DNA from: Promethearchaeota archaeon
GTDB lineage: Archaea > Asgardarchaeota > Heimdallarchaeia > Hodarchaeales > Hodarchaeaceae
DNA length: 64,000 bases
Direction: 5' to 3'
NCBI GenBank assembly: GCA_048938105.1
Contig: JBHLMN010000013.1
Span: forward strand, 64,001 to 128,000
Both the position numbers and the translations under genes were made by a program. The notes under the pieces are model-generated. The model saw only the letters and a list, made by a program, of their open reading frames with translations. It searched no databases and was not told the DNA's origin. The first letter of the stretch is position 1. The number at the start of each line of letters is the position of its first letter. Positions 1,493 to 45,157 of the stretch are shown here, in pieces.

Positions 1493-2755
1493 TTAAGGGA
1501 AAATTCCTCTAAGCTGGATAGCCCTAGCAACTCTATGAACTGCTAAAGCCATTGCTGCTGTACGAAAGTCCTGTACGTTATATTTCTCTCTCATTTGATC
1601 GACCTCTGCAAATGCTCTGACCAGAATTTTCTGTAGAGCTTCATTAACCTGATTTTCATCCCAAAAAAAATATTGAAGACCTTGTACCCACTCGAAGTAA
1701 GAAACGGTTACTCCACCAGCATTGGCTAGGATATCTGGTACGATAATAATACCTTTCTCATTGAGAATAGAATCCGCTAGTGGAGTGGTGGGGCCATTAG
1801 CTCCCTCTACTATAAGTTTTGCTTCAATTTCATCAGCATTTTCCCTAGTAATTTGATTTTGTGTTGCACATGGAGCAAGAATATCAACATCTAATGTTAA
1901 TAATTCTTTATTGGTAATTATTTCAGCGTTTGGGTATCCTTTAACTGTTCGATTAGAATTTTTTGCAATATAATCTAATATTTCTGGAATATTTAGTCCT
2001 TCAGGATTATAGCAACCACTAAAAGCATCATTCACGGCAATAATCTTTGCGCCATTTTGATATGCAATTTGAGCAAAATTAGATCCAACATTTCCAAATC
2101 CTTGAATAGCAACGGTAGCATTTTTAGATCTTTGCTTTTGTTGTTTAAGAGCTTCTTCCATTACAATATGAACACCTCTACCAGTAGCCTCTAGTCTACC
2201 TAGACTTCCTCCAAGTTCCAATGGTTTTCCTGTGACTATACCTAATTCAGTTTGACCTTGAATCATACTATAGGTATCCATTATCCACCCCATTATTTCG
2301 GGTGTTGTATTAATATCAGGAGCGGGAATATCTTTATCTGGGCCAATCATATCAATAACTGAATAAGTAAATCGACGAGTAACACGTTTTAACTCATTCA
2401 CACTAAGTTTGTACGGATCAACAACTACTCCACCTTTAGCCCCTCCATATGGAATATTTACGATAGCAGTTTTGTACGTCATCCATGAAGCTAATGCCTT
2501 TACTTCATCTAGATTAACATCTGCTGCATAACGAATGCCACCTTTGCAGGGACCACGACTAGCATTATGCTGAACACGGTATCCCTCAAAAACTTCAATA
2601 CTTTCATCGTCCATTGTAACTGGAAAAGTTGTAATTAAAGTCTTTGCAGGGTTTTCAAGGATTTTCTGAATATTCTTATCAAGATCAATTTTTTCTGCAG
2701 TATTTCGCAATTGTGTCAATGCATTTTTCCAAGGATTTGATTCATTTTCTTTCAA
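1493..2755 (-). CDS. gdhA: Glutamate dehydrogenase (intact catalytic motifs)
   Basis: GPCKGGIR, MTYK, GGAKGG, PAPD, GKPLELGGS-GR-EATG, GFGNVG, EGANGP and GGVTVSYFEW; TTG start. Confidence 0.93.
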   Translation of the reverse strand: MKENESNPWKNALTQLRNTAEKIDLDKNIQKILENPAKTLITTFPVTMDDESIEVFEGYRVQHNASRGPCKGGIRYAADVNLDEVKALASWMTYKTAIVNIPYGGAKGGVVVDPYKLSVNELKRVTRRFTYSVIDMIGPDKDIPAPDINTTPEIMGWIMDTYSMIQGQTELGIVTGKPLELGGSLGRLEATGRGVHIVMEEALKQQKQRSKNATVAIQGFGNVGSNFAQIAYQNGAKIIAVNDAFSGCYNPEGLNIPEILDYIAKNSNRTVKGYPNAEIITNKELLTLDVDILAPCATQNQITRENADEIEAKLIVEGANGPTTPLADSILNEKGIIIVPDILANAGGVTVSYFEWVQGLQYFFWDENQVNEALQKILVRAFAEVDQMREKYNVQDFRTAAMALAVHRVARAIQLRGIFP

Positions 2756-2965
2756 TTCTAATCCTATTCCTTTTCTGATAATTTAAAGAGCTCTTATATT
2801 ATTAATTACATTCACATTTGTTTTAATTCAATATTATAGCTTGCTGTTTTCATCATGCAATGCGTGATATGATTTATTGAGATTTAGATTTATCACGCGA
2901 ACATCCTTTAATTTTGAGAAGGATAATATCTTTAATGGAGTATTTTCAAAATCTTTTTTTTGAAA

Positions 2966-3733
2966 CTAAGAGAATAATGCTTGTATTTGAGTTAAAATTG
3001 ACTCTACTGCTTTCGTCCACAGTGTATATTCATGATAAGATAATTTATATCTCCATCCTACAAGGTTTGATTCCTCCCATTTGTCTTGAACTGAGCATCC
3101 TAAGCATGGGGGAATACTATAAATTGAAAAAAGGGGATTCTCCCAATTTGGAGGCATTTTTGAAAACTTTTTCATTTTGATAAGGGCTTTTCTAAAATTC
3201 ATTATCTCAGAAACCTGAAGATACCATTCAGGGGTAATACAATCGTCTAGTGGACCTTCAAACCAATCTAATTCAAGTATTCTCGCTTTTTGGTTCACCC
3301 ATATTAATAAAACAGTTACATACTGCCCTTCTCTCCCATCAGAATTTTGCCCGGCGATATTTACCCCAAGAGCAATACAGGGAATTTCTTCGGGGATTAA
3401 TGCTCTTTCCCATTGTTGAATGATTGACTTCAGACATCCAGGATCTACATCTTTATCATTTTCATAATTAGGGAGAGGAACTATTCTCCGAGGAAGCCAT
3501 CCAAGAGTCTTATCAATATAATTTTGGGAAAAGTTTCTACGACCCGATATGCTGAATTTTTTAAGTGATTTTGGTACTTCAAGAAATATTGGATGAAAAT
3601 TGTTTACTGGAAATTCACCTGGGGTCGTACTTATTAAACTTAAATCACTTGGAACTGTTATAGAGTTAAAATCAATTAAATTTCTTAGATTACCCCAAAT
3701 AAGAGAAGTCTCAATAGCTGAAAGACTAAACAT
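2966..3733 (-). CDS. Hypothetical protein
   Basis: 255-aa ORF co-oriented with the cluster; no confident family. Confidence 0.6.
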   Translation of the reverse strand: MFSLSAIETSLIWGNLRNLIDFNSITVPSDLSLISTTPGEFPVNNFHPIFLEVPKSLKKFSISGRRNFSQNYIDKTLGWLPRRIVPLPNYENDKDVDPGCLKSIIQQWERALIPEEIPCIALGVNIAGQNSDGREGQYVTVLLIWVNQKARILELDWFEGPLDDCITPEWYLQVSEIMNFRKALIKMKKFSKMPPNWENPLFSIYSIPPCLGCSVQDKWEESNLVGWRYKLSYHEYTLWTKAVESILTQIQALFS

Positions 3734-3975
3734 AAAATTCGCCTTTATATTTTTATGAATAATTTTTTAGGAAATTGGAAGCTTAACCTCACGTTGTTTG
3801 ATTATTTAGTCAAATGTCTTAATTCCACATGTTTATGTCTATTTAATTAAATGTTAGAACGTTGAGGCCTATTGTTCTTCGTTTTTTGATTATTTTTTCA
3901 CTCAAGGACCTTCTTCTTGAAATATTTTTTCGAATGGTCTCAATAGACACCCTGTTTGTTGTTTCAATTGGAATA

Positions 3976-5517
3976 CTAATGATATTCCTCCCATGTCCGA
4001 GGATAGGGATGATCTAATCCTGCAAGCTTGACACCTGTAATTGCCGCAGCATTAGTAGTTAAAGCCCTCAAATCTTCTCTTGAAAGATCTTTGATACTTT
4101 TATGCCCGGAAAGCATGGTAAATATTTTAATCTCATCTGTCATTGCCTTTAGGAAATTAGCTAGACGTTGTCCTGTTTTCTCAGGATCCAAACGAGCCCG
4201 AAGCTCAGGTTTGTTTGTCGTGATACCATACGGACAGATACCCTGATGACATGCCATACAAGCTCTACATCCCATGGCAATTTCTGCGGCTGTACCAATA
4301 CCAACAGCGTCAGCACCAAGCGCTAATGCTTTGAAAGCATCGACACCGCTGCGGATACCACCTAATGCAATAAGTTTGACTTTTCGATAGAGTCCCATAT
4401 CTTTTAGAGCCTGAACTGCAGGAGGAATACATGCAATAGTAGGAATTCCAGCATGTTGTGTTACAGACTCCGGAGATGCACCAGTTCCACCAACCATTCC
4501 GTCAATAGATATAGCGTCGACTCCTAGTTCTGCAGCTATCTTTACATCCTGATAGGGCCGACTAGGACCTAATTTTATCATAATCGGTACTTTATAATCA
4601 GTAATGTCTTTGATGATCTCTATTTGCTTTTTAAGATCTTCTGGGCCTATTGCATCATAATATCTTGGGGGAGAAAGGGCATCTGTACCAATAGGAATCC
4701 CCCTCACTCTAGCAACTTCTTCTACAACCTTTTTCCCAAGAAGGTGCCCACCCATTCCAGGTTTAGCACCTTGACCGATTTTAACTTCGATAGCATCTGC
4801 ATTATGTAAAAAATCAAGATTAACTCCCCAACGTCCAGTTGACCACTGTACAGTCAAATATCCACCGTTACATAAATGAGGATTACTTTTCCCAGAAGTT
4901 CTAAGTTCTTCAAGTGTATTAAATCCGTGGACAAGAGGATATTCTTCATGAATAGCTCCACCTTCACCTGTATTAGCAATAGTTCCCATTTTATAAGCTG
5001 CTATCGCTAAAGACATCTTTGCTTCTTTTGACAAAGCACCAAAGGACATTGCACCAAAAACTATAGGGATTTTTAATTTAATGGGATGTTTTACTGTCTC
5101 TTCACCAATTATTACACTGACATCACAATCCTCACGATATTTATCAAGAGGAGGTGGAGAGGCTAATTGAGAGGGAATAATAACAAGATCATCAAAGTGT
5201 GGGATAATTCGAGCAGTTCCAAAACCCCTTAACAGATATTTACCAGTCTGGGCCTGGTGATGAATATGTTCAATTGTTTGAAAAGTCCACAGAGATCGTG
5301 AGAAATATTCCGGCTCAGCAGGTTTAATGTGAGTTGCATTATTTGGACAAAACTCCATGCAGATCCTGCAACCAACACACGCCATATCATTAACTATTTG
5401 AACCCTATTATCATCATCTTTTTCATATACTTTATGTGGACATACTTCTACACAAGTACCACAATGAGTACATCTCTCATAATCGATATTTACGCAATAT
5501 GCTCCAAGAATTGGCAA
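3976..5517 (-). CDS. gltB2: Archaeal split glutamate synthase FMN subunit (GltB2) with N-terminal 2x[4Fe-4S] ferredoxin
   Basis: Two CxxCxxCxxxCP motifs; AMSFGALS, NTGEGG, EVKIGQGAKPGMGG and GGTGAS; [3Fe-4S] motif CRACMACHQGICP. Confidence 0.9.
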   Translation of the reverse strand: MPILGAYCVNIDYERCTHCGTCVEVCPHKVYEKDDDNRVQIVNDMACVGCRICMEFCPNNATHIKPAEPEYFSRSLWTFQTIEHIHHQAQTGKYLLRGFGTARIIPHFDDLVIIPSQLASPPPLDKYREDCDVSVIIGEETVKHPIKLKIPIVFGAMSFGALSKEAKMSLAIAAYKMGTIANTGEGGAIHEEYPLVHGFNTLEELRTSGKSNPHLCNGGYLTVQWSTGRWGVNLDFLHNADAIEVKIGQGAKPGMGGHLLGKKVVEEVARVRGIPIGTDALSPPRYYDAIGPEDLKKQIEIIKDITDYKVPIMIKLGPSRPYQDVKIAAELGVDAISIDGMVGGTGASPESVTQHAGIPTIACIPPAVQALKDMGLYRKVKLIALGGIRSGVDAFKALALGADAVGIGTAAEIAMGCRACMACHQGICPYGITTNKPELRARLDPEKTGQRLANFLKAMTDEIKIFTMLSGHKSIKDLSREDLRALTTNAAAITGVKLAGLDHPYPRTWEEYH

Positions 5518-5538
5518 GATATCTTACCCTCGTTTTTT

Positions 5539-6225
5539 TTAGCTCTTTTCGGAATAAAATGGTTTATCTGTTTCTGCAATGATTTTTGTAAATTCTTCTG
5601 GTTTTGCATCGACTTTATAGGTAGAGAAGAATTGCTGAAGAAAATCCATATCATCAGATGAAAGATCTTCGATCTTAGTATTGTTTCCAAGGCTTTTCCA
5701 AGAACCTCTGGTGAAAATTCGACCTGAAATCAGAAAATTACCTACTCTTTCACCAGCGTTTCCTAATAAAATGATATTCCCCGCAAGCATATAGGTTCCA
5801 AGATCATTTCCTACGTCTTTTTCTACAAAAATTGAAGCACCTTTATTCATTGTCCCTAGAAAATCTCCACAAGTTCCCATAATGACTACTTTTCCTCCAT
5901 AGCAATAAGGGGCTGCACAATAACCAGCATTACCTTTGACAATAATTTCTCCATCAATCATGTTATCTCCAATGTATTTCCCAACACTTCCTTCAATGAT
6001 TAATTTAGCTCCCGAATTCAGCATACCAACGTAATCACCTACAGAAGTCTTAATAATAACTGTACCTTCTCTTAATCCCGAAGCAATACCATTTAATAGA
6101 TCACAATTAGTAACAGTTACTGTACCATTCTCCTTAAGTATACTCTTTATTTCTTGATTGATATTTTTTAATTTTAATCCTATTAAATCGGTTGGACTAA
6201 CAGCTACTACATCCATTACATTCAC
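5539..6225 (-). CDS. gltB3: Glutamate synthase GXGXG beta-helix subunit (GltB3/FwdC-like)
   Basis: Repeated G-x-x-G-x-x-x-G-x-x-M-x-x-G units; adjacent to gltB2. Confidence 0.85.
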   Translation of the reverse strand: MNVMDVVAVSPTDLIGLKLKNINQEIKSILKENGTVTVTNCDLLNGIASGLREGTVIIKTSVGDYVGMLNSGAKLIIEGSVGKYIGDNMIDGEIIVKGNAGYCAAPYCYGGKVVIMGTCGDFLGTMNKGASIFVEKDVGNDLGTYMLAGNIILLGNAGERVGNFLISGRIFTRGSWKSLGNNTKIEDLSSDDMDFLQQFFSTYKVDAKPEEFTKIIAETDKPFYSEKS

Positions 6226-7378
6226 CTCGTATTTTTATTGTTCCCTCCTTCTTTTTTTGGTTAAATAAACCCATAAACCGACTTTTAGTTTCCTCAAGTC
6301 TATTTTCATCAGTGAGTGATTCGAGTGAATAGATTAACAGTGAATCAAAGGCTTGCGTCCGTTTTCTACGTTGCTTTTCAGAACAGGCAGCTGAAATTGC
6401 TACAAAATCGGCTTCCTCAGTACTTTCAATCAATCCCAAATTTAAGCAATTATTTAGGAAGCTGCGTCCCCTTGCATTCCAAGCAATTAAACTTGCAAAT
6501 CCTGCTTGGGAACCAGTCTGACCAATTGAAATATCAGCCATATTAGCAACGTAATCTGTACACCGTGCACAACCTTTTCTTAGATACTTTTGTTCTTCCT
6601 CTAGTGGGAATTTTTCATTTTTTCCTGTGTTAAGCTTGATTTCAAGGTATTCACCTTTAGTTGAACTGATGATACTTATAATTTCAGCAGGCGATACACC
6701 CAGATGGTTTGATAAATCTTCAAGAAGAGCAGTTTCATAATATCCTGAGCAGAATAACCCAATCACAATACCAATAGACTTTCGTAGAATCGATAAACCT
6801 TCTATTTCTGATTCAGTAACTCTTCTGATGGCCTGAGCGACACACGGAGGTCCAACAATAGCAATTTGATGAAAGTCATTTTTTAAAACCTCGTGATATA
6901 AGTTTGATAAAATAGGATTCCACAATTTCTGATTACCAGAAACCTCGTAAAGTTCTTCAATTGATCTAACAACTTTTGAATATGGTTTTCCATCCCATCT
7001 ATTCACATCCATAATTAGAGCAGCATCAATAAACCCACTCATTAAACCTGCTGAAAGGAGATCAATAATGATTTCATTTATGTGGTTACCTGTGATATTA
7101 CGTGTTGTTTTTACTGATATAACATCATATATTTTTCTTTCTTCCCACTCCTTTAGACGAGGACAACTTTCCACACACATACCCTCGCAAAATGAACAAG
7201 TATCAATGTCAACAACCGACAAACCAACAGTTTTTATCTTGGGAATAAAAACAGGATGTTGCATTTCTGGTTTAAACTCTAATCGTCCACGGGAGCAAGC
7301 AGCGACACACATGCCACAACCAGCACATCGATCAACATTCCAAACTTCATTTTCTAATTTCAGTTGTTTAGACAACAT
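6197..7378 (-). CDS. Coenzyme F420 hydrogenase/dehydrogenase beta subunit (FrhB/FdhB family) with N-terminal ferredoxin
   Basis: CAGCGMCVAAC, VGPPC, IGLFC, GCARCTD and ADISIG motifs. Confidence 0.85.
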   Translation of the reverse strand: MLSKQLKLENEVWNVDRCAGCGMCVAACSRGRLEFKPEMQHPVFIPKIKTVGLSVVDIDTCSFCEGMCVESCPRLKEWEERKIYDVISVKTTRNITGNHINEIIIDLLSAGLMSGFIDAALIMDVNRWDGKPYSKVVRSIEELYEVSGNQKLWNPILSNLYHEVLKNDFHQIAIVGPPCVAQAIRRVTESEIEGLSILRKSIGIVIGLFCSGYYETALLEDLSNHLGVSPAEIISIISSTKGEYLEIKLNTGKNEKFPLEEEQKYLRKGCARCTDYVANMADISIGQTGSQAGFASLIAWNARGRSFLNNCLNLGLIESTEEADFVAISAACSEKQRRKRTQAFDSLLIYSLESLTDENRLEETKSRFMGLFNQKKKEGTIKIRGECNGCSSC

Positions 7379-10300
7379 GAATTTTACCTCTCACACGTCT
7401 TGTTTCTACATATAAGGATTCAAGAGGGCCTAGAGATTTGATTAATTCTGTAAATTCTGTTATTAGTTGAGCAAAACGATTTCCTTCACTAGCTGATATC
7501 CATTCAAGAGTCAGACGCCGCGAATCAATTCCTATTGAAGAGAGAGCTTTCTTCATTTTCTCAATGCGATCTTTTGCGTATAAATTACCTGAGATATAGT
7601 GACAATCCCCAGGGTGACAACCACTGACAAAAACACCATCAGCACCTTCCAGAAAAGCCCATAATAAGAAGAAGGGATCTATTCGTCCACTACACAATAC
7701 TCTGATAATGCGAATGTTGGAAGGGTATTGAAAACGTGAAATTCCAGCAAGGTCAGCTCCAGCATAAGAACACCAATTACAACAAAAACCGACAATTTTG
7801 GGTTCATCATTAGGAAAGGATCCATGGAGGGCTTCAGAAATTTGGTTTAAAATCTGGAGATCAGTGAAACCTTGCATTGTTATTGCTTTTGCAGGACAAG
7901 AAACGGCGCACACTCCACATCCTTTACAAATGGCTTCATTTACATGAGAAATCAGATCTATTGGATGAAAGCTTATTGCACCATATGGACATACGCTACC
8001 ACAGGTACCACATCCTACACAAAGTGCTGGATCAACTGTAGCAATATTAGTTTCTGCAACAATTTGCCCTAATCGCATAGGAATTGAAGCACGAGCAGCA
8101 GCTCCAGAAGCTTGACTGATTGTATCACTCACATTCTTCGGTGAATGGGCAATCCCACAAACATAAATCCCATCAGTGGCAAAGTCTAGTGGACGGAGTT
8201 TTACATGAGCTTCTTGAAAGAATCCATCTGTTCCCAAGGGAACTTTGAATAATTGGCTTAATTCCTTAGCACCAGATGAATTCACAAGTGGAGTAGCTAA
8301 TAATATTAAATCAGCTGAATAAGAATAATCTTCTCCTGTAAATATGTTATGGAATGATATAGTGATTCCAGTTTCACTAATATTCACATTGGGTTTGTTT
8401 TCCTCATTATAGCGAATGAAATATACTTGTTGAAGTTTACGTACCTCACTATAATATTCTTCAGCACTTTTTTCTACTAATCGAATATCTTGATGTAAAA
8501 TACGAATGTGAGCATTAGGATATCTTTTACTTAATTTTTTCACAGTTTTTAAAATAGCTGCGCATCCAATTCTGCAACAATACGTACGGTTGCTTCCTGC
8601 TTTCTCTTTCGATCCCACGCAGCTAATTAGAAATATATTGACAACATCTTTCGGTAATTTCTTCTTCTTAAGTGCTTGTTCAAATTCTAGTAAAGTCATT
8701 ATGCTTTTGTGGCGAGAATAGCCATAATATCCTACTGGTTTGAATTCTTCACCACCAGTTGCAATAATAACGGTTCCAACCTTGATTTTTTTGCTATCAT
8801 CACCTGAGAGGGTAATTTCAAAATTACCGACATATCCCCCAACATTTTCAACAGTTGTACTAAGATATACATGAATTTTTGGATTATTGGATATATTATT
8901 AATCTTTTCTTTCAGAATATCTCCAGTGAATTGATCTGTAGGAAATAATGTCGTCATTGTACGTAAAAGGCCTCCCAAGTACTTCTCCTTTTCCACTAAA
9001 TGAACATCAAACCCCATATTTGCAAGATCGTCAGCAGCAGTTAGTCCTGCAATTCCTCCACCGATAATTAGTGTTTCTGGAATCACTTTGAGTTGTTTTC
9101 TTACAGATGGTTCCAATAAACGGGCTTTTGCCACTGCCATAGCTGTAAGATCTTTAGCTTTATCTGTAGCATTTTCCCACTCGTGTGAATGAACCCAGGA
9201 ACATTGATCGCGGATATTTGCCATCTCAAAGAGAGATTCATTCAATCCTGCTTCTTTGCAGGTTGTTCGAAATAGGGATTCATGCGTTCTCGGAGAACAT
9301 GATGCAACAACAATTCGGTTTAGATTATAATCCTGAATAGCCTTTTTTATCAGAGTTTGAGTAGCTTCTGAACAGGTAAAAAGGTTATTTGTGGCGAATT
9401 CAACTTTGGGCAGTCTTTGTGCAAATTTGGTAACACTCTCCACATCAAGATAACCACCAATATTGTGACCACAGTGACACACAAAAACTCCAATTCGAGG
9501 TTCCTGATCAATTATATCTTGTAATTTGTTAGATATATCTTCAGCTACTTCTTTATAAACTTTAAATTTATTTTTATTTATTACAGCCAAAGCCTTCGCA
9601 GCAGCTCCACTTGCCTGAGAAACCGAATCTGGAATGTCTCTTGGACCCGCACTACAACCACAAAGATAGATGCCATCAACTGTGGTTTCTAATGGTGCGG
9701 AGACGGGATCTTTTTCCCTAAAGAAGCCATATTCATCAAGTTCTACTCCTAGAATTTCCGATAATTTCTTATTGCCTGTTGGGGCTTTAATGGCTGAGGA
9801 TAAAACCACTAAATCCGCCTCTAACTCCGCAGCCTTCCTTGAGATAATGTCTTCATAGAATATGATTAAATTATTATTATTTGTTTCATTGATTTCTGCT
9901 GGACGACTTCTTATGAAGTTGATCCCAATTTCATGTTTTCCTCGCTGATAGTATTCCTCAAATCCTTTTCCATATGCTCGCAAATCCATATAGAAGATAT
10001 AGGGTGTTATTTCAGGATGATGCTCTTTAGCAATCATTGCTTGTTTTGTTGCCCACATACAGCATACACGAGAACAATACGGTTGATTTATTGTAATATC
10101 GCGAGAACCTACACATTGAATCCATGCAATGGTTCTAGGGATTTTCTTATCTGAAAGGCGGCGAACTTGACTCTCTGTCGGTCCTGAGGCTGATAATAAG
10201 CGTTCAAATTGCATTCCTGTTAAAATATTAGGATAAATACCATATCCTAAATTATATTTCACAGTTGGGTCAAATTCTTCAAAACCTGTGGCTAATATAA

Positions 10301-10892
10301 TTGCAGATACAATAATTTCAAGCATTTCAGGCTTCTGATCACGATTGATAGCTCCAGGAGCACAAACTTTCTCGCATTTACCACAATTTTTGCAAAGATC
10401 TTTATCAATCGTTGCAACATTAGGTACAGCTTGAGCAAAATATCTATAGATAGCTCTACGGGTACCTAAATTATGATCAAATTCATTAGGAACTTTTACT
10501 GGACATACCTCAAAACAAGCTCCACATCCTGTACACTTTTCAGTATCAACATAACGAGGGTGCTTTTTTATAGTAACTTCAAAGTATCCTTTAGATCCAT
10601 TAACTTTTTCGATTGTAGAATATGTTATAAGTTCAATGTTTTGATTACGAACAACTTCGACCATTTTGGGAGCTTCAATGCATATCGCACAATCATTGGT
10701 AGGGAGAGTTTTATCAAGTTTTGCCATCGCTCCTCCAATTGACGGTGCATGGTCTACTAGGTAGACTTGGATCATCTGATTAGCAATATCGAGTGCTGCC
10801 TGCATACCAGCTATCCCCCCTCCAATAACTAGAACCCCGTTAACCGTCTCTATTTTCTCTAAGCTTGAGACAGAATTTAATTTCTCTTGCAT
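7368..10892 (-). CDS. hdrA: Heterodisulfide reductase A-like flavoprotein: two HdrA modules, ferredoxins and a C-terminal MvhD
   Basis: Two GGGIAG FAD motifs; QCVGSR..YCSRVCC; GVFVCHCG, SCSPRTHE and NIRDQCSW; C-terminal MvhD motifs FCCNWCSY, RVLCSGR and GCHPGDCHY. Confidence 0.9.
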   Translation of the reverse strand: MQEKLNSVSSLEKIETVNGVLVIGGGIAGMQAALDIANQMIQVYLVDHAPSIGGAMAKLDKTLPTNDCAICIEAPKMVEVVRNQNIELITYSTIEKVNGSKGYFEVTIKKHPRYVDTEKCTGCGACFEVCPVKVPNEFDHNLGTRRAIYRYFAQAVPNVATIDKDLCKNCGKCEKVCAPGAINRDQKPEMLEIIVSAIILATGFEEFDPTVKYNLGYGIYPNILTGMQFERLLSASGPTESQVRRLSDKKIPRTIAWIQCVGSRDITINQPYCSRVCCMWATKQAMIAKEHHPEITPYIFYMDLRAYGKGFEEYYQRGKHEIGINFIRSRPAEINETNNNNLIIFYEDIISRKAAELEADLVVLSSAIKAPTGNKKLSEILGVELDEYGFFREKDPVSAPLETTVDGIYLCGCSAGPRDIPDSVSQASGAAAKALAVINKNKFKVYKEVAEDISNKLQDIIDQEPRIGVFVCHCGHNIGGYLDVESVTKFAQRLPKVEFATNNLFTCSEATQTLIKKAIQDYNLNRIVVASCSPRTHESLFRTTCKEAGLNESLFEMANIRDQCSWVHSHEWENATDKAKDLTAMAVAKARLLEPSVRKQLKVIPETLIIGGGIAGLTAADDLANMGFDVHLVEKEKYLGGLLRTMTTLFPTDQFTGDILKEKINNISNNPKIHVYLSTTVENVGGYVGNFEITLSGDDSKKIKVGTVIIATGGEEFKPVGYYGYSRHKSIMTLLEFEQALKKKKLPKDVVNIFLISCVGSKEKAGSNRTYCCRIGCAAILKTVKKLSKRYPNAHIRILHQDIRLVEKSAEEYYSEVRKLQQVYFIRYNEENKPNVNISETGITISFHNIFTGEDYSYSADLILLATPLVNSSGAKELSQLFKVPLGTDGFFQEAHVKLRPLDFATDGIYVCGIAHSPKNVSDTISQASGAAARASIPMRLGQIVAETNIATVDPALCVGCGTCGSVCPYGAISFHPIDLISHVNEAICKGCGVCAVSCPAKAITMQGFTDLQILNQISEALHGSFPNDEPKIVGFCCNWCSYAGADLAGISRFQYPSNIRIIRVLCSGRIDPFFLLWAFLEGADGVFVSGCHPGDCHYISGNLYAKDRIEKMKKALSSIGIDSRRLTLEWISASEGNRFAQLITEFTELIKSLGPLESLYVETRRVRGKIHVV

Positions 10893-10947
10893 TTTAATAC
10901 ATCAACTTGAAAAATGCATAGTAATACTCATAGATAAATTTAATTGG

Positions 10948-11355
10948 TTAATCCACCTTTTTTCCGTCTCTTATGATGTCAATGACATGTTTTACCACAT
11001 CTCGGGGTTCAAAACTGTTTTCGGTTATTTTCACTCCCCTTTTATGCCGTATGATAGGAAAAACATTTGAAAAATTCTGATAAATGGGTATAATCTCTAA
11101 TCCTGAATTAAAAGCTAAATTGACTTCTTCACACATGTCTAAGATGTTTCGTGCTTCTTTTGAACAAAAAAATATACAGACATCAATCAGGTTATTTGAG
11201 AAATTTAGACACCTACAAAGGCTGTCTTTACTCCTATCAGTCTCACACAAAACAATTCTGTCAAAATCTGAATATTTTTTGATTTCTTCAATGAAATCAG
11301 AAACTCTCAAAGATTGCTTATCATGTTCATTATAACTAATAAATAGATTTAACAT
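10948..11355 (-). CDS. Stand-alone TIR-domain protein
   Basis: LFISY, CIFFCS, the helix C CEEVNLA (candidate catalytic Glu) and IIPIY. Confidence 0.7.
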   Translation of the reverse strand: MLNLFISYNEHDKQSLRVSDFIEEIKKYSDFDRIVLCETDRSKDSLCRCLNFSNNLIDVCIFFCSKEARNILDMCEEVNLAFNSGLEIIPIYQNFSNVFPIIRHKRGVKITENSFEPRDVVKHVIDIIRDGKKVD

Positions 11356-11367
11356 AATCTTTACTTC

Positions 11368-12630
11368 CTAAGATTCATCCTCTAAAGCGTCTAAGACTCT
11401 CTGTTGAGCAATTTCCTTGGCTATTATTCGTGGAATAAGGCCAGAATCGATTGTTCTTTCACTAATTAATTTAGCGTTCTTCTTGATTTTTGACTCAATT
11501 AATACAAAAGCTTCTGCTGCATCCATTTTTCTATATTCGGCAAAAGAGCCAATAATCCCTCCAGCATTGACTAGAATATCAGGGAGGATGATTACACCTT
11601 TTTCAAACAATTTTCTTTCAGCGATAGTGGTTGAACTATTATTAGCTCCTTCAACAATGAGCTTTGTTTTAAGTTGAGTAATTGTATCTTCATTTATTAC
11701 ACAATCATACGCGCAGGGAATAAATACATCACATTCTATTTCATAGATCTCGTCTCTAGGTAAGATCATACCCTCTCTCGAACGTTTTAATGAACGTTCT
11801 TTATTCATGGCATGTGCAAATTTTCTAATCTTTTTAATATCTATACCATCTGAATTATAGAGAGTTCCCCAGTTATCATTTACAGCGATTATATTCGCTC
11901 CTTTGCTATTCAAATATTTTGCCGTTCCATAACCTACCTTACCAAAACCTTGGATTACTACGCGTGTCTCCGATAAACAATTAGGGCATTGAATTGAATC
12001 ATGTAAAACTTGAAGACTTGTTTCAAGAGCCACTCCAATTCCGAATCCAGTCATATCATTCTTATAAGATATTCCTCCAAGGCTAGTTGGTTTTCCAGTG
12101 GCTCCTAGTAGATCACCAACGGTTTCTACAAAAGCTGCAATTTCTTTTTCACCAACATTTATATCTGGACCAGCTATATATTTATTAGGAATAAAAGGTG
12201 CTATTTTATCAGCAAAAGCTTTGATATACTTGATTGTATCAATTTCAAACGGATCTGCACGAATACCAGCTTGAGCTCCCCCGAACGGAATTTCTGCCAG
12301 AGCGCATTTCCAAGTCATTAATCTAGCAAGTTTAAAAATCCCTAAAGGAGTAATTGTAGGAGAAATTCTAATTCCCCCTTTCCCTGGCCCTAATGTAGTG
12401 TTATCAATTATTAAATACCCTTGCATTTGTATATCAGGGTCATAAACTTGAACCACTCTTTCAGGCCCCCACTTATCTAGAAAAGCTGAAATATTAACAT
12501 GATTTAAGGCTTCAAGAATATTTTCACTGCTTAGTACTGTTTTTTCATCCTGAGAAGACATTCTTGACATATCCATAAAATATAAGCCATCTAGATACAA
12601 GAATAATGAAAAAACAGAAATATAAAACAT
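11368..12630 (-). CDS. Glutamate dehydrogenase paralogue with catalytic Lys replaced by Gln (probable pseudoenzyme or regulatory subunit); likely start near 12576
   Basis: GKGGIR, MTWK, GFGKVG and EGAN are retained, but GGAKGG reads GGAQAG (codon CAA). Confidence 0.85.
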   Translation of the reverse strand: MFYISVFSLFLYLDGLYFMDMSRMSSQDEKTVLSSENILEALNHVNISAFLDKWGPERVVQVYDPDIQMQGYLIIDNTTLGPGKGGIRISPTITPLGIFKLARLMTWKCALAEIPFGGAQAGIRADPFEIDTIKYIKAFADKIAPFIPNKYIAGPDINVGEKEIAAFVETVGDLLGATGKPTSLGGISYKNDMTGFGIGVALETSLQVLHDSIQCPNCLSETRVVIQGFGKVGYGTAKYLNSKGANIIAVNDNWGTLYNSDGIDIKKIRKFAHAMNKERSLKRSREGMILPRDEIYEIECDVFIPCAYDCVINEDTITQLKTKLIVEGANNSSTTIAERKLFEKGVIILPDILVNAGGIIGSFAEYRKMDAAEAFVLIESKIKKNAKLISERTIDSGLIPRIIAKEIAQQRVLDALEDES

Positions 12631-12727
12631 TGATGTACAAAATTAAGAAAAAAACACTAATAACTGAGAACAAAAAAAGAAATAATGTATTAAAAACGAC
12701 ATTTTCTTTTTATTTTTGTATTCAATG

Positions 12728-12745
12728 TGTTATAATATTATAACA
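12728..12745. promoter_or_regulatory. Perfect 18-bp palindrome TGTTATAATATTATAACA, candidate operator
   Basis: Self-complementary sequence in the divergent intergenic region between the glutamate cluster and the Lrp-like regulator. Confidence 0.5.
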
Positions 12746-12876
12746 GAAAAAATACTTCTATTCGTAATTTTGACATATTTGATATTATAAAAAGAAATTT
12801 GATAACAAAATGATTACATTTATATTTATCAATTTTTACATAAGGAGTTGAAAAAATTAGGATAGTATTTTATTTC

Positions 12877-13944
12877 ATGAAAAAGATTCTTGAAGATAAT
12901 TTGAACTTAAAAATTTTAGAACTAATATGTGCAGGTGAGGGGGTCTCTGTCAATACTACTGAACTATCAAAAGTTCTAGGTAAGCATCGAAATACCATAA
13001 AAAATAATATTGCTAAGCTATTCGAACACGAAATCATAGAAAAGCCCTTTTATCCTTTCTCTTATCTTTTTAAGGAATGGCCTCTTCTTGTCATTGAAAA
13101 AGCAAATTTTCAAAGAAACTTGAAAACAAATGTTTTTATTGAAAAGGATCCAGTTATATGGGCAGCTTTTTTTGTTAAGGAAAATGAATACAACACATTT
13201 CTAATTGAATTTCATAAGGATTTATATTCTTATCAAAATTGGAAAGAAAGTATAATCAAAGAGGCAAAGATTACTCTTAAGGAGGAAACCTATCCATCTG
13301 AGGCAATTTTTTTAACAATGAGAAATTTAATTAAGTATGAGCCAACAATCGCAGTGCAAATATTAGAAACTAATTATAAAAACCATCATCATCAAGAGCT
13401 AAATGGCTTAAAGCTTAGTGATTTCAGGCTTGAACTTATTAAACTTCTTTTAACTGGGAAATGTATTAGAACTAATGAGTATCACATTAGTGATATGCTT
13501 GATGTCCATCGTCGCACTGTTAAACGTCGAATTGAAAAATTATTAGAACATAGAATAATTGATAGTCCAGTTTGTTGCTTCCCAAGAGTTTGGGTGCCAC
13601 CAAAATATTTTCTGGTCTTTTCTTTATTTGAAATAAAGAATAAAAATGAGTTGGTATTGAGAACATTAAGGAATGATCCCCATGTTCCAATTCTTTTCAG
13701 AGCTGTTGTAGATAAATTTAATCTTGCTCTCTTTAGCAATTTTTATAAAATGGAAGATTTTTTGGAATGGGCGGAAGAATATGATCAAAGATTTCCTGGA
13801 TGCATTGGAGCAGTCAGGAATACATTTCTTTCTCCCTCCATGACTTTCTCTATTGCCCATAATTATGTTACTCTCACATTTATTCAAAATATTGCTAATC
13901 GTTTACGAGGTAAGGTATTTGTTGAAATGATGAAAGAAAGCTAA
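12877..13944 (+). CDS. Tandem-duplicated Lrp/AsnC-type transcriptional regulator
   Basis: Two wHTH units (ELSKVLGKHRNTIKNNIAKL and HISDMLDVHRRTVKRRIEKL), each followed by an alpha/beta RAM-like domain. Confidence 0.7.
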   Translation: MKKILEDNLNLKILELICAGEGVSVNTTELSKVLGKHRNTIKNNIAKLFEHEIIEKPFYPFSYLFKEWPLLVIEKANFQRNLKTNVFIEKDPVIWAAFFVKENEYNTFLIEFHKDLYSYQNWKESIIKEAKITLKEETYPSEAIFLTMRNLIKYEPTIAVQILETNYKNHHHQELNGLKLSDFRLELIKLLLTGKCIRTNEYHISDMLDVHRRTVKRRIEKLLEHRIIDSPVCCFPRVWVPPKYFLVFSLFEIKNKNELVLRTLRNDPHVPILFRAVVDKFNLALFSNFYKMEDFLEWAEEYDQRFPGCIGAVRNTFLSPSMTFSIAHNYVTLTFIQNIANRLRGKVFVEMMKES

Positions 13945-40390: not shown

Positions 40391-41038
40391 ATGAAATGTC
40401 CGCATTGCACAGTTGAAATATTCGCAGATAAAAAATACGAACAAATTTACAATTTTTCTGATAGAAAAGGAGATTGGAGATTAGTTTTTTTCAAATGTCC
40501 TAGTTGTATGAATTTTACTTTTGATCTAGAGAATGGAAACCGTAGTAAAACTGCGTTTGATATAAAAGAAACAATTAGAGTATATCCTAAAGGCAGCTCA
40601 CGTCCTCCTTGTCCTCAAGAAGTTCCTCAACATGTAGCAGAAGACTATACAGAAGCTTGCTTGGTTCTTATTGATAGTCCAAAAGCCTCTGCTGCATTAA
40701 GTAGACGCTGTCTTCAAAATATTCTTCGAGAAGCTGCTGAAGTTAATCCTAGCAATCTTTCAACAGAAATTCAAGAGGTATTAGATGGTAAAACTTTACC
40801 TACTTACATTGCGGAATCTATAGATGCGGTAAGGAATATTGGTAATTTTGCAACTCATCCAAATAAAAGCAATAGTACAGGTGAGATATTACCCGTCGAA
40901 CCAGAAGAAGCAGAATGGAATTTAGATGTACTAGAAGCATTATTTGACTTTTATTATGTCCAACCAGCTAAGATACAAAAAAAGAAGGGTGCATTAAATA
41001 AAAAATTAAAAGAAGCAGGTAAGAAACCTATGAAGTGA
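40391..41038 (+). CDS. Zn-ribbon plus DUF4145 (HEPN-like) protein
   Basis: CPHC/CPSC; DYTEA..SPKASAALSRRCLQ; R-NIGN-xx-H; GGAGG RBS. Confidence 0.85.
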   Translation: MKCPHCTVEIFADKKYEQIYNFSDRKGDWRLVFFKCPSCMNFTFDLENGNRSKTAFDIKETIRVYPKGSSRPPCPQEVPQHVAEDYTEACLVLIDSPKASAALSRRCLQNILREAAEVNPSNLSTEIQEVLDGKTLPTYIAESIDAVRNIGNFATHPNKSNSTGEILPVEPEEAEWNLDVLEALFDFYYVQPAKIQKKKGALNKKLKEAGKKPMK

Positions 41039-41050
41039 GGAATTAATATA

Positions 41051-41755
41051 ATGACCAAAAAGATCTGTTTTTTAATTTGTCCTATTGGTAAGGAAGGTAG
41101 TCCAGAGAGAAAGAGAGCTGACCAGCTTTATAACCACATTGTGATTGAAATATTGAAAGAATATGATTTTGAAGTCATTAGAGCAGATAAAATCGGTAAA
41201 CCAGGAATAATTACTCTACAGATTATTGAACAGTTAAATAGTGCTGACTTGGTTATTGCTGATTTGAAAGGGCATAATCCTAACGTGTTTTATGAGCTCG
41301 GGATTCGTCATGTCATTGGAAAACCTATAATTCAGATATATCATCCTGATGAACGAATCCCTTTCGATGTATCTGGATTAAGAAGCATTACACTTGATAT
41401 ACAAGACTTAGATAGTGTAAAAAATTGCATAACAGAGCTAAAAGAGCAAGTAGAATCGATTTTGGAAAATCCTGAGGAATTAACATCACCTTATACTACT
41501 GCTATTGATTATCAAACACTAAGATCAAGTGAAAATCCGATTGGAACAGCTTTAGCGGATATCAAAGAAAGTATTGAGAGTCTAAGAACACAAATAGAAG
41601 AATTAGAACATTCTACAAGGTTTGTACCAATAACAAGAACGAGATTTGATTTAAGTAAATATTTTACTGATGACAAAGAACGAAAAGCTTACAAAACATT
41701 GCAAGAGGCTTTTGATGCACAACCAACTAATCAAAACAACAATGACGAGATTTAA
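41051..41755 (+). CDS. Nucleoside 2-deoxyribosyltransferase-like (NDT/TIR-like) protein with C-terminal coiled coil
   Basis: CFLICPIG, RAD, ADLVIADL and NPNVFYELG. Confidence 0.8.
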   Translation: MTKKICFLICPIGKEGSPERKRADQLYNHIVIEILKEYDFEVIRADKIGKPGIITLQIIEQLNSADLVIADLKGHNPNVFYELGIRHVIGKPIIQIYHPDERIPFDVSGLRSITLDIQDLDSVKNCITELKEQVESILENPEELTSPYTTAIDYQTLRSSENPIGTALADIKESIESLRTQIEELEHSTRFVPITRTRFDLSKYFTDDKERKAYKTLQEAFDAQPTNQNNNDEI

Positions 41756-41810
41756 AGCTTATTGCAATGATTACTTACTGAGTACATTAAGGATAGCGAA
41801 TCCTAATATC

Positions 41811-42371
41811 CTATTCCTCTTCTTCTACTTCATTAATTTCATTTAATTCTCTTGATTCTTCAATTAATGGTTGATGCTCGTTCTCCACACTTTTAGTTTC
41901 TTTAATCTCTCCTCTGTGGACATAAAACATAATAGTTAAAAGGAACATAAGGATTATGAAATATACCATAATTCCATTGGTAAATGAGGAGGAATAAGTA
42001 AATATTTCATCTAATGCATAATGCCCTTCCATAAAGTAAATGACCAGAGTAATAATACCTATCACTGATAAAATTATTGTCACAAGGATAATATGTCTTC
42101 CTATTATCTTATTTCTTTCATTTCCAAAGAAAGTATTTACTAGAAAAACGTACGAACTGAAAACACCAATTGTTAAGATCAACCAATTTTGCATTTCGGT
42201 TGGATCATAGGACAATCCATAATCGAGAAAGTATTGCAACATTATAAGACCACAGATAACGAAAGTAAAGCAGAGTGCTTCTTTGTAAGCCTCTTTTAAT
42301 CTTTGAGTATCAAACTTATTCCTAATTCCCTCTAACCTCATCTTGATCTTTTCTCCCATTAATATCAACAA
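41811..42371 (-). CDS. Four-TM membrane protein with acidic tail
   Basis: Four hydrophobic segments. Confidence 0.65.
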   Translation of the reverse strand: MLILMGEKIKMRLEGIRNKFDTQRLKEAYKEALCFTFVICGLIMLQYFLDYGLSYDPTEMQNWLILTIGVFSSYVFLVNTFFGNERNKIIGRHIILVTIILSVIGIITLVIYFMEGHYALDEIFTYSSSFTNGIMVYFIILMFLLTIMFYVHRGEIKETKSVENEHQPLIEESRELNEINEVEEEE

Positions 42372-42399
42372 GTGTTTAAGAAAAACTCAGTTATTCAGT

Positions 42400-42423
42400 T
42401 AAATAAGCCTTTCGAACGCAGAA
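42400..42423 (-). promoter_or_regulatory. BRE/TATA promoter module, copy 1 (TTCTGCGTTCGAAAGGCTTATTTA)
   Basis: 22/24 identical to 46491-46514; CGAAAG followed by an AT-rich box, upstream of the gene starting at 42371. Confidence 0.6.
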
Positions 42424-42528
42424 GAACTCTAAATGTTTTCTCCTGATTACGTACACCTCCCTCCTAATTGTTCATTGAAGTTTTGTTATATTCAATTCCT
42501 GAAATCAGGAGTTTTAATTTAGAACTTC

Positions 42529-43932
42529 TTAGAGAAATCCTCTCCTAATTTCTTTAGATATTTTCTCATAAGTCTTAGGGTTAATGTCAGCCCTTAGAAG
42601 AAGTAAATCAGAAATAGGCTGCCTAATCCCAAAATTATCGAATTTAGAGATGACCTTAATAGCGATCTTTGTGGTAATAATCTCTAAAATCTGATTTAAT
42701 TTTGGGTTTAATTCTTCAAGATTTTCAACGTATATAATTTCTGCTCCTGGCTTGACTCTGGCAAAATATTCTTGAACTTCAGGTGCAATCTTCTTTGTTG
42801 ATACTATTATCGCATAATCAGGTTTATAGAGACCAATTCGGCCTCCAAAAGGATACGCATGTCCCATTGAAAATTCGTTGTCCTTAAGTTCAAACATTAG
42901 CAATGTTCCCTCTAGATCAATAAAAGCATCTATTTCCTCGGTTCCTTCTAATAAATTAAGCAATATTTTATCTCTAGGAATACCGAGCTCGATTAATACT
43001 CTTACTAATTTAGCTGTCATCCAATAGCTATGATCTAACATTCTTTTTAAATCATCTGTCGGACTAAAAAGCGTTTCTATTCTTTCTTCAGATATTGGAT
43101 TACCACAAGAACACAAAACACCCATTTGGGTCATTTTTTCGATCGAATCTTTCGATTGAACTCTATTAATTTGGTTTGAAGTTTTATTACAAATCACAAC
43201 ATACTCTTGTGAAAGGAGATTAACCTTTGTCAATTCTTTAATGATTTCTTGAACTTCTTCTACTTCCCTACCTGCCTTTTTTTCGAGATCTGTGGCTAAT
43301 ATCCCACCTGATCTTTTTATTAAAAGAGCTAGATGTCTAATTGAAGGATTTTCTAGGTATATTGATAGCTCAAGATCATCTTCAGATATATTATTTGAGG
43401 GAATAAACCTTGTTTCTTCACTATTAGAGAGCCCTTCAAATTTTTGGTTTACTGTCTGAAGTTCTTCCCAAGCAAAAGTTAAATCAAGGTCATTTAATAT
43501 TATATTTAAACTGTTTAATAGGTTTTCAAGCTGATCAGGACTCTCATCAACTTTAAGACAACCTACCTCAAGAAAATATTTTCCCTTTTCATCTTTAGAA
43601 TCACCTTTTCTTTCTTCTTCTTCTTTATTTACTAGGATATATAGAAAACCATGTTCATTAGGAGTGTAATAAAGGTCTCCAATTATAGGATTCAAAGATT
43701 CTTTATAATATCTAAAAAGAGAGTAAGATCTATAGATAAAGTCTATCTCCAAATCTCTCATTTTCCTTGTTTTTAAATCTGATTCCTCAACACCGAATGT
43801 TTCAAAAAATCTCTTCTCAGCTTTCGATATTAACGGGTTGAATCCCTCTTCAGCTAGTTTATCTATAATAGAGTCGAAATATTCTATTTTATAATCAAAA
43901 GGAGTTATTTTCCTTTTTATTTTTATTGTCAT
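42529..43932 (-). CDS. wHTH/Zn-ribbon protein with C-terminal restriction-endonuclease-like (Mrr-type PD-(D/E)xK) domain
   Basis: EEIDAF..LLMFELKD and AIIVST; helix-turn-helix segment DLEKKAGREVEEVQEIIKEL; ICNK/LCSCG. Confidence 0.6.
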   Translation of the reverse strand: MTIKIKRKITPFDYKIEYFDSIIDKLAEEGFNPLISKAEKRFFETFGVEESDLKTRKMRDLEIDFIYRSYSLFRYYKESLNPIIGDLYYTPNEHGFLYILVNKEEEERKGDSKDEKGKYFLEVGCLKVDESPDQLENLLNSLNIILNDLDLTFAWEELQTVNQKFEGLSNSEETRFIPSNNISEDDLELSIYLENPSIRHLALLIKRSGGILATDLEKKAGREVEEVQEIIKELTKVNLLSQEYVVICNKTSNQINRVQSKDSIEKMTQMGVLCSCGNPISEERIETLFSPTDDLKRMLDHSYWMTAKLVRVLIELGIPRDKILLNLLEGTEEIDAFIDLEGTLLMFELKDNEFSMGHAYPFGGRIGLYKPDYAIIVSTKKIAPEVQEYFARVKPGAEIIYVENLEELNPKLNQILEIITTKIAIKVISKFDNFGIRQPISDLLLLRADINPKTYEKISKEIRRGFL

Positions 43933-44081
43933 TGTTAAACCCCTCTCTAAATGTACGGTTTTTCGGCTTTACTTAAAAAATCTCTTATTTAACCAAAGAT
44001 ATTTGTTCCCCTTGTTTTTATCTTTAGAATAATACTAATTCTTTAGTCTCATGATTATTTCTCTTAAATATCTTAATTAGA

Positions 44082-45157
44082 TTAGGTCGGAGTAACCTTA
44101 AGGAATCCAAAACCAATTAACTCTTTTATCAAGTCCATTGCTTTTGCTTTTAGCATATCTTTATCAAAAGAGATGTAACCTAAATCACTAAAATCACTGG
44201 CGAGACTTACTCCTGTTTCTTTAAGAATAACAATTTTTTTCCCGTATAAAACACCAGCTGCTCCTAATTCGAATACTGCATTATCACTCGGTCTAAAAAT
44301 CTCATTATCATTCTCATCAATGTACTTTTCATCAGCAGTGAATATTACAATCGCAGATGTACATTTATGCATCAAATCAGCTATTTTTTCTGATATGGGA
44401 CGTCCTATATGTGGTTCATCAACTGCAACGCTGTAAGGAACTTTAAATTCATCTAGTATGTTCTTAAGTTGCTCCAGTGGTTTTCTTTTTTTTCCATGAA
44501 TTATAAAAATCTTGTTAATATGTGGTTTTTCAATTAGAATAGCAGGGGGTGCTTCTACAGGCTCCTCTTCTTTCACCACTAATCCAAGATCTTCCATTTC
44601 TTCTAGTTCAGAGATCTCTTCATGCGTTGCTGGTACTCTAGTAGAAAGATTATCTAATCGTACATATGTGCTACCACTAATATCTTCCAAGATACCTAGT
44701 TCTGTTCCATTTTTAGTAATCATCTCATAACAAGTTGTGACATCATCCTCAGGAATTTTAAAGTCTCTAGTAAATGTATTCTGGATAGGTTCTAATTGGG
44801 GGAATTTATGAGTATCGTAACGCTCGAAAAATACTTTGAATACTTTAATAGAAAGCAAAGCCTCAAGAAGTGCATTATTTTTCTCTTCAATATTTTGTGA
44901 AGCAACTATTGATCTACCTCGTTCCGTTAGTGAAACACTCTTTGCAGCAAACTCCCTTTCGTAAGACCAAATTGACCTGAAGCAGTTATAAGGTTTCTGA
45001 ACCAGCTACTTGTTGGTGATTGCTCCAAAACCTTTGCAAGGTCTAAAATAGCATATGGTTCTCCTGCATTATAATCCTGGATCGCTTGTGCCACCCTTAC
45101 TGAATCCATTAAACTCTTTCTGGGAAATAGACTTTTTCTTCTCTTTTTCTTAGCCAA
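44082..45157 (-). pseudogene. Frameshifted gene for a wHTH plus CAP12/Pycsar-type TIR-like nucleotide-binding protein
   Basis: The 76-aa and 258-aa ORFs join if one base is restored near 44950 (GLTKGS-x-AAKSVSLTERGRSIV..LLEALLSIK). The C-terminus has KIFIIHGK, AIVIFTADE and RPSDNAVFELG. Confidence 0.8.

Follow-up and report, generated by a model that had tools for sequence, protein, structure and literature searches.

What does a glutamate synthase head do in an operon that encodes no glutamine amidotransferase and joins it instead to an FrhB-like subunit and an HdrA-MvhD fusion? The question is raised by a gene block at positions 1493-13944 of the window analysed here, a 64,000-nt stretch (contig JBHLMN010000013.1, positions 64,001 to 128,000, assembly GCA_048938105.1) from a Promethearchaeota archaeon of the Hodarchaeales. 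The block encodes a conserved and apparently undescribed Hdr-linked oxidoreductase with an amidotransferase-free glutamate synthase head. From sequence comparison we tentatively propose that it forms a soluble flavin/Fe-S complex, wired through Hdr, for the glutamine-independent interconversion of glutamate with 2-oxoglutarate and ammonium, most likely in the oxidative direction. The operon is neither a glutamate synthase proper (it has no amidotransferase) nor of the type of the putative F420-dependent glutamate synthase of methanogens, FGltS (its flavin signature is lost). The block comprises the following features:

12877-13944, plus strand: divergent double winged helix-turn-helix (HTH), Lrp-like regulator (HTH matches).
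11368-12630, minus strand: glutamate dehydrogenase (GDH)-like protein (Pfam ELFV_dehydrog; GGAQAG in place of GGxKGG).
10948-11355, minus strand: small TIR-like protein (TIR_2, E=0.088, below cut-off).
7368-10892, minus strand: type II HdrA fused to MvhD, HdrA-HdrA-MvhD (NCBIfam HdrA2, 1250 bits; FlpD, E=4.3e-54).
6197-7378, minus strand: FrhB-like protein, putative Fe-S adaptor, with an N-terminal 2[4Fe-4S] domain (FrhB_FdhB_C, E=4.2e-28).
5539-6225, minus strand: GltB3, GXGXG beta-helix subunit (GXGXG, PF01493, E=4.7e-13).
3976-5517, minus strand: ferredoxin-fused GltB2, flavin mononucleotide (FMN)/[3Fe-4S] synthase subunit (Glu_synthase, E=1.8e-112).
3843-3968, minus strand: apparent remnant of a second, F420-type frhB, its last 41 codons (blastn against relatives and translation).
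2966-3733, minus strand: conserved hypothetical protein of 255 aa (kept in six other loci, L102 included).
1493-2755, minus strand: intact gdhA, glutamate dehydrogenase (GdhA_Arch, E=1.4e-157).

All eight minus-strand open reading frames (ORFs) named by a sequence-only reading of this DNA were found at the positions and in the order given there, and its domain calls hold in profile searches, the HdrA2 match lying above the NCBIfam cut-off. The TIR gene is present as an ORF but its domain match is too weak to count. Intergenic spacing along the operon, starting from the GDH-like gene, is 12, 55, -11, -29, 21, 242 and 210 nt. The ORF list and the profile searches also bear out that neither gltB1 nor hdrB or hdrC lies within the cluster. 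The divergent regulator sits inside the same block and had gone unnamed. The host genome, at 99% completeness and 7% contamination, falls in one genus with metagenome-assembled genomes (MAGs) labelled Hodarchaeota and other Asgard names. A bacterial promoter scan of the operon returned chance-level matches only.

Outside the window, hdrA(-mvhD) and the frhB-like gene accompany gltB3/gltB2 in 29 of the 31 informative loci, that is, those with at least 4.5 kb of sequence upstream of gltB2; the two exceptions are one assembly gap and one probable deletion. Besides five further genomes of the genus, the core was found in three more Asgard families, Geothermarchaeales, Thermoplasmatota, one MAG with the label Bathyarchaeota and about 35 Chloroflexota loci; the linkage of hdrA-mvhD with gltB2/gltB3 is conserved in several archaeal phyla and in Chloroflexota. 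Its spread is patchy: 5/20 other genomes of the genus, 9/350 Asgard genomes and 24/301 Anaerolineae genomes sampled. These counts do not support a module specific to Asgard archaea.

The exit arms vary by lineage, with hdrC-hdrB at seven loci, a second frhB at five and nuoE-nuoF(-gltD)-nuoG at about 14 bacterial loci. The sister locus L102 (2357-10038), from a Thermoplasmatota-type genome, encodes the regulator, the pseudo-GDH, the 255-aa hypothetical protein and gltB3, followed by the small and large subunits of a [NiFe] hydrogenase with intact metal motifs, placed between gltB3 and gltB2; judging from these genes it is a candidate H2-linked version of the same enzyme. Since the accessory arms differ by lineage and L102 has a hydrogenase, the GltB2/GltB3 head is a unit plugged into different electron circuits. 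In one further locus, L036, NuoEFG seems joined directly to GltB2, but this apparent variant has the look of a misassembly or an out-of-frame deletion and was left out of the count. A 174-aa protein, with only a weak nucleotidyltransferase-like lead in Atlas, is encoded directly after gltB2 in most Anaerolineae loci (L037:6653-7177 and 23 others) and in L101.

The catalytic head itself appears sound. K252, R272 and T345 of GltB2 correspond to K972, R992 and T1065 of Synechocystis glutamate synthase (GltS) and are invariant in 48/48 members of the Hdr-linked clade defined below, and the [3Fe-4S] motif Cx5Cx4C is retained, its cysteines being invariant in the clade. As far as residues can tell, the 2-oxoglutarate/FMN/[3Fe-4S] site is intact. 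Of the parts of a glutamate synthase, the FMN synthase domain and the GXGXG subunit are present and the class II amidotransferase subunit is absent. GltB3 is 42-62% identical to the GltB3 of the clade and 28% identical to GltB1-linked GltB3. The loop S1011-I1012-E1013, which according to Dossena 2007, as cited in PMC7124931, couples the synthase to the glutaminase, is all but fixed in GltB1-linked rows (S in 23/23, I/V in 23/23, E in 23/23); in the Hdr-linked clade the segment is variable, the first two positions changing and the E1013 equivalent being Glu in 38/48. Separately, gltB3-gltB2 pairs or fusions with neither amidotransferase nor electron module occur at L103, L105, L106, L107, L108, L112 and L118; several of these have altered 2-oxoglutarate residues, which suggests another substrate or lost activity.

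Is the enzyme truly free of an amidotransferase, or is one supplied from elsewhere? In a tree of 106 FMN domains (a quick version, with SH-aLRT support only and a midpoint root), Hdr-linked GltB2 forms one clade of 48 rows (SH-aLRT 100), nested in a 61-row group (97) in which no locus examined has an adjacent amidotransferase. GlxB-linked GltB2, such as L119 and L120, is sister (97) to the 61-row group, and the GltB1-linked Asgard enzymes are placed far from the clade. The Hdr-linked GltB2 is the sole Glu_synthase gene in 27/36 other carrier genomes. PF00310 proved too insensitive, with no match in the host genome despite its GltB1, and PF13522 and two custom profiles were used instead. The sensitive GltB1 profile detected nothing in 29/36 carriers, and in each of the seven with a GltB1 the gene adjoins its own second GltB2. 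The GlxB profile found none in the host genome and one among the carriers (G065), which was rejected as an in-trans partner since its own collapsed gltB3/gltB2 remnant follows it. At L128:9486-10758, a GlxB-type amidotransferase gene is followed by a 120-aa fusion of the gltB3 start with the gltB2 end; this is a collapsed or misassembled glxBCD operon. Five carriers of the same genus have as class II amidotransferases only GlmS, PurF, AsnB-like or YafJ-like enzymes; in two of these, at 95-96% completeness, the set is limited to GlmS, PurF or YafJ-like ones.

The sequence-only reading had named a gltB1 elsewhere, serving the complex, as what would overturn it. One does exist on the same contig, about 25 kb from the cluster gltB2, but it belongs to a second, self-contained glutamate synthase (C4:37443-42799, equal to L068:12443-17799). 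This unit consists of a GltB1-GltB3 fusion (844 aa) whose catalytic Cys aligns with that of other GltB1 proteins, a GltB2 of 460 aa and a divergent ferredoxin-GltB2 paralogue; the paralogue, 519 aa long, reaches no more than E=1e-13 and may be a non-catalytic electron-input subunit. The same trio occurs in L114-L116, and relatives without the cluster described here have the unit too. At the level of the clade, tree and GltB1 and GlxB profiles agree with the earlier description of the enzyme as amidotransferase-less, and within the limits of MAG completeness the amidotransferase-free state is well supported. The 255-aa hypothetical protein, which might conceivably replace GltB1, gave neither a Pfam or Atlas lead nor a usable model (pLDDT 43). 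A second, separate link between Hdr and glutamate synthase exists in many other Asgard genomes, where a gene whose HdrB(-HdrC)-like product has about 430-450 aa heads the split gltB1-gltB2-gltB3 loci (L086, L087, L089-L100, L111), often near glnA.

How, then, do electrons leave the head? The FrhB-like subunit has the FrhB fold (model pLDDT 84, TM 0.73 to 8RJA_E) and 12 invariant Cys, enough for three clusters. The signatures by which the FrhB family binds flavin adenine dinucleotide (FAD) and F420 (helix-start GG, K75-Y76 loop, S209-V210, GKGK turn) are not found in it. The QDGG motif, whose GG starts the FAD helix, is lost in 38/38 core copies, which carry N-E/N-D-type residues instead; the GG is kept in all five second FrhB copies, and the second FrhB of close relatives reads AQNGG. 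The F420 synthesis gene cofD (marker TIGR01819; PF01933 was rejected as it also matches YvcK in E. coli and Bacillus) is present in the host genome and in most Asgard carriers, and in 1/23 Chloroflexota carriers. Because the FAD signature is lost throughout and most bacterial carriers have no cofD, the core FrhB-like subunit is, on its residues, an Fe-S adaptor and not an F420 site, against the earlier suggestion that F420 is its partner.

The second frhB of the close relatives, for its part, appears to be deleted here to a remnant of 41 codons. A blastn comparison joins L022:4066 to L022:5078, leaving the gene about 1.0 kb shorter than in close relatives, and 3843-3968, which lies in the 242-nt gap following gltB2, encodes the C-terminal end of the FrhB2 of those relatives; the rest of the gene was not found anywhere in the host genome. 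Given the lost core signature and this truncation, F420 could serve at best as an accessory arm in a subset of the archaeal copies, this copy excluded. A predicted GltB2-FrhB-like complex scored 0.49 against 0.00 for the best control, with at least 90% of contacts agreeing between runs and a partner pLDDT of 79. In calibration, scores of 0.60 or less were given to 7/80 solved complexes and to both of the two mismatches that passed (of 110), and the predicted contact is weak support that shifts the odds little.

HdrA consists of two FAD/thioredoxin-reductase domains with inserted and C-terminal ferredoxin domains, fused to MvhD, whose [2Fe-2S] adaptor cysteines are kept. Both flavin domains retain bifurcation-type residues, E230/K283 and E738/K782, equivalent to the E356/K409 pair proposed as a mark of bifurcating HdrA (PMC12054007). 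Anaerolineae loci have only the C-terminal HdrA half with MvhD, mostly with the Lys. A genome-wide search for hdrBC found two unlinked sets, an mvhGA-hdrACB operon on contig C50 and another set on C6, and none of the cluster type. Against the cluster-type HdrB of relatives their HdrB proteins show 38-45% identity, while those of the relatives share 65-66% with one another, and for this reason we regard the cluster's own hdrBC as missing here.

In the proposed mechanism GltB2 would oxidise glutamate on FMN and release ammonium, and the electrons would pass from FMN through the [3Fe-4S] cluster and the two [4Fe-4S] clusters of GltB2 to the three adaptor clusters, then to MvhD and an HdrA flavin. 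Since glutamate donates electrons only weakly, two routes out of HdrA are proposed: electrons could go to a disulfide via HdrBC, or those of glutamate could be paired with reduced ferredoxin and passed to NAD+ (NuoEFG, in Anaerolineae) or F420 (the second FrhB, in relatives). In the window copy, with neither hdrBC nor the second FrhB left in the cluster, the exit arm would have to come in trans, from the unlinked HdrBC or another partner, or the copy may be partly degenerate. We take the potential of the glutamate couple to be -0.13 V, or about -0.26 V at plausible concentrations; the ferredoxin and heterodisulfide potentials, also assumed, agreed with a separate check. On these values the standard-state cost is +37 kJ/mol for glutamate to NAD+, about +2 kJ/mol for glutamate to heterodisulfide, and between +2 and +12 kJ/mol for confurcation with reduced ferredoxin to NAD+, and all three oxidation routes become feasible at cellular concentrations. 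Thermodynamics also speaks against a cycle of the complex with GDH in which NADH would bring about a net reduction of ferredoxin, and this was rejected.

The case for oxidation is circumstantial. The glutamine synthetase gene glnA adjoins 11/19 stand-alone-GltB1 loci and none of the clade loci. Glutamine synthetase is encoded in 36/37 carriers and a GDH-family gene in 33/37, so ordinary assimilation is already covered. The usual neighbours are Lrp/AsnC-type regulators and gdh genes, and the attached modules are those of energy metabolism. Several observations weigh on the other side. The window copy encodes no exit arm, only the ferredoxin site; the C-terminal HdrA domain has no K409 equivalent in several archaeal relatives; and the E1013 equivalent of the glutaminase-coupling loop is still Glu in most of the clade. 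Most carriers have GDH, and there would have to be a particular energetic reason for another enzyme that deaminates. Closely related as they are, the Anaerolineae loci do not count as independent, and the carrier genomes are MAGs, 70-99% complete, in which single absences are uncertain. Finally, the reverse reaction is downhill from every donor tested, and direction is fixed neither by thermodynamics nor by sequence. The more specific form of the proposal, a confurcating glutamate dehydrogenase in which electrons of glutamate and reduced ferredoxin are joined on HdrA and leave by swappable NAD+, F420 or disulfide exits, we consider doubtful.

The same downhill energetics sustain the strongest alternative, in which the same complex assimilates ammonium without ATP or serves as a sink for electrons, 2-oxoglutarate + NH4+ giving glutamate, with NADH, F420H2, H2 or a thiol plus ferredoxin as donors; HdrA may then drive ferredoxin reduction with the high-potential step. 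Amination is the natural direction of the synthase domain, an ammonium-dependent activity of GltS is known, 27/36 carriers have no other glutamate synthase, and in L102 the head is attached straight to a [NiFe] hydrogenase. Yet GltS without its tunnel has poor ammonium affinity, neither glnA nor amt ever adjoins the clade loci, unlike those of GltB1-linked enzymes, and GDH and glutamine synthetase are already present in the carriers, so that we judge amination unlikely.

It is also conceivable that the head acts on N-methylglutamate, another N-substituted glutamate or another pair of 2-oxo acid and amine. The closest amidotransferase-linked relatives of the operon GltB2 on the tree are of the GlxBCD/MgsABC type, the 61-row group being sister to GlxB-linked GltB2, and MgsABC, made of GltB1/GltB3/GltB2 homologues, handles methylamine (PMC6237917); some databases label clade members MgsC. 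Compared with MgsABC, MgsA/GlxB and gmaS are missing from the operon and an external electron chain is present. With gmaS, mgd and methylamine genes absent from the loci read, invariant glutamate-site residues and a recurring linkage to glutamate dehydrogenase, such a substrate is distinctly improbable. A normal gdh lies in the cluster or within about 14 kb of it in ten genomes from at least three phyla, and this repeated association speaks for glutamate as the substrate.

The two flanking GDH genes reported by the sequence-only reading both have the GDH fold, but only one is a normal GDH. The product of gdhA retains the three active-site lysines, the PAPD aspartate and GxGxxG. In the GDH-like protein upstream the catalytic Lys is replaced by Q, R or A in 6/6 carrying genomes (Gln here), and relatives begin later, placing the true start probably near 12561-12576. 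From its residues it is probably a regulatory pseudo-enzyme, and as a regulatory subunit or sensor it might tune gdhA against the Hdr-wired complex. Precedents are the Thermus thermophilus GdhA/GdhB heterohexamer, where GdhA is an inactive GDH subunit that regulates GDH and is encoded with the active one, as here (PMC9570180), and the Bacillus GudB-GltAB complex (7MFM), where GDH and glutamate synthase parts are likewise brought together. Here, unlike in Thermus and Bacillus, two gdh genes bracket a redox operon. The TIR-like protein occurs in four genomes of the genus and is missing from L025 and all bacterial loci, being confined to Hodarchaeales copies; its DMCEEV could hold the catalytic Glu of TIR NADases. 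The double-HTH protein, at the same position in L021, L023, L024 and L025 and with a 45% identical copy in L102, is a probable regulator of the operon. The 255-aa hypothetical protein accompanies the regulator and the GDH-like gene in six other loci. A paralogue of the regulator (45%) lies at C4:48672-49709 (L069:3672-4709) beside a malic enzyme gene and an Mbh/Mbx-like membrane hydrogenase operon, and L021 and L024 show similar neighbours.

One could assign the cluster a chiefly regulatory role, with gdhA under the control of GltB2, the pseudo-GDH and the TIR-like protein. It would then act as a sensor of glutamate/2-oxoglutarate and redox state or as a counter-enzyme assembly like GudB-GltAB of Bacillus subtilis. 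Pseudo-GDH, regulator and hypothetical gene stay together even in L102, the structure of a GDH-GltAB complex is solved (7MFM), and in Thermus inactive GDH subunits regulate GDH. This is very unlikely, as the bacterial and several archaeal copies have no pseudo-GDH or TIR yet keep the whole electron chain, and all cofactor ligands are strictly conserved. Least likely of all is an ordinary glutamine-dependent synthase with its amidotransferase encoded elsewhere and HdrA as a new electron input: the fusion with a catalytic Cys 25 kb away, the mostly kept Glu at the E1013 position and the glutamine made by 36/37 carriers speak for it, but the host GltB1 has its own GltB2 and fused GltB3 in a unit found alone in other genomes, the five same-genus carriers have only class II enzymes of other types, and most carriers have no detectable GltB1.

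Compared with known systems, the Hdr-wired operon combines familiar parts in a different way. Methanogen FGltS (with MTH193 as FrhB-like subunit 4; PMC3448663, PMC3087415) shares a split GltB2/GltB3 beside an FrhB-family gene and the same FMN/[3Fe-4S] synthase site. FGltS is itself biochemically unproven; against it, the present operon has no GltB1, an FrhB-like subunit without the FAD-pyrophosphate helix start, an attached HdrA-MvhD and, in most bacterial carriers, no cofD. The FdhAB-MvhD-HdrABC, Elp-Hdr and MvhAGD-HdrABC complexes (7BKB, 8RVU, 5ODC) and the type II HdrA-Molybdop-FdhB clusters (PMC12054007) were also compared. Like the Fdh, Elp and Mvh systems, the operon has the HdrA K409/E356 equivalents, MvhD, an FrhB-fold subunit in the docking position and, in seven related loci, HdrBC; unlike them it has a glutamate synthase head in place of a hydrogenase or formate dehydrogenase, HdrBC is optional, and its hosts are not methanogens. 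MetFV-HdrABC-MvhD of Moorella thermoacetica, as it is cited in 10.1101/2021.09.25.461819, is similarly a metabolic flavo- or metalloenzyme bolted to HdrA-MvhD. The Anaerolineae version has NuoEFG-like subunits, and its head and substrate are unlike those of MetFV-Hdr. The same difference sets it apart from the BamEFGHI electron module of class II benzoyl-CoA reductase, likewise an enzyme on an HdrA-MvhD-type module, and we know of no described HdrA-linked system with an amino-acid amination couple.

Several other features were seen around the cluster and in the host genome. Separated from gdhA by a 261-nt gap downstream, and on its strand, lie a radical SAM gene and a HAD hydrolase gene (272-1231) that are not conserved with the cluster in the compared loci. 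A low-GC stretch at 40391-44858, with an NTP-hydrolase-like or TIR-like gene (41051-41755) and several ORFs of no assigned role, may be an inserted island. The host genome has two further large Hdr clusters, namely a membrane/CCG-HdrA-HdrA-MvhD block (L123:4266-13531) and one in which three hdrA, two mvhD and Flx-like genes accompany hdrCB (L124:5409-20000). At L070:3053-5822, genes for glutamate-cysteine ligase-like, gamma-glutamylcyclotransferase-like and YafJ/EgtC-like class II amidotransferase proteins stand in a row, kept in two relatives; the trio may handle a gamma-glutamyl conjugate.

No published description of the operon was found in the literature searched, which left most subscription papers outside. 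In a survey of 1,152 HdrA proteins, glutamate synthase comes up only in connection with GltD insertions, and in the accessible part of the source on them, the FrhB10 clusters of anaerobic methanotrophic archaea (ANME) are F420-type candidates with no HdrA. Genomes of the clade annotated with 'glutamate synthase' or 'F420 hydrogenase beta subunit' may have neither and call for caution. As the clade is well defined, the proposal is directly testable with the four-gene core. In anaerobes that ferment peptides, glutamate is the hub for amino-acid nitrogen and electrons, and oxidising it with NAD+ runs uphill; a glutamate step wired through Hdr would add a new substrate class to flavin-based bifurcation and would assign a function to one of the numerous HdrA genes that are orphans in non-methanogenic archaea and Chloroflexota. 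If the confurcating form of the proposal is true, the adaptor would be the first FrhB-fold subunit serving as a flavin-free wire, and the complex the first bifurcating enzyme on an amino-acid amination couple, common to Asgard archaea and sediment Chloroflexota.

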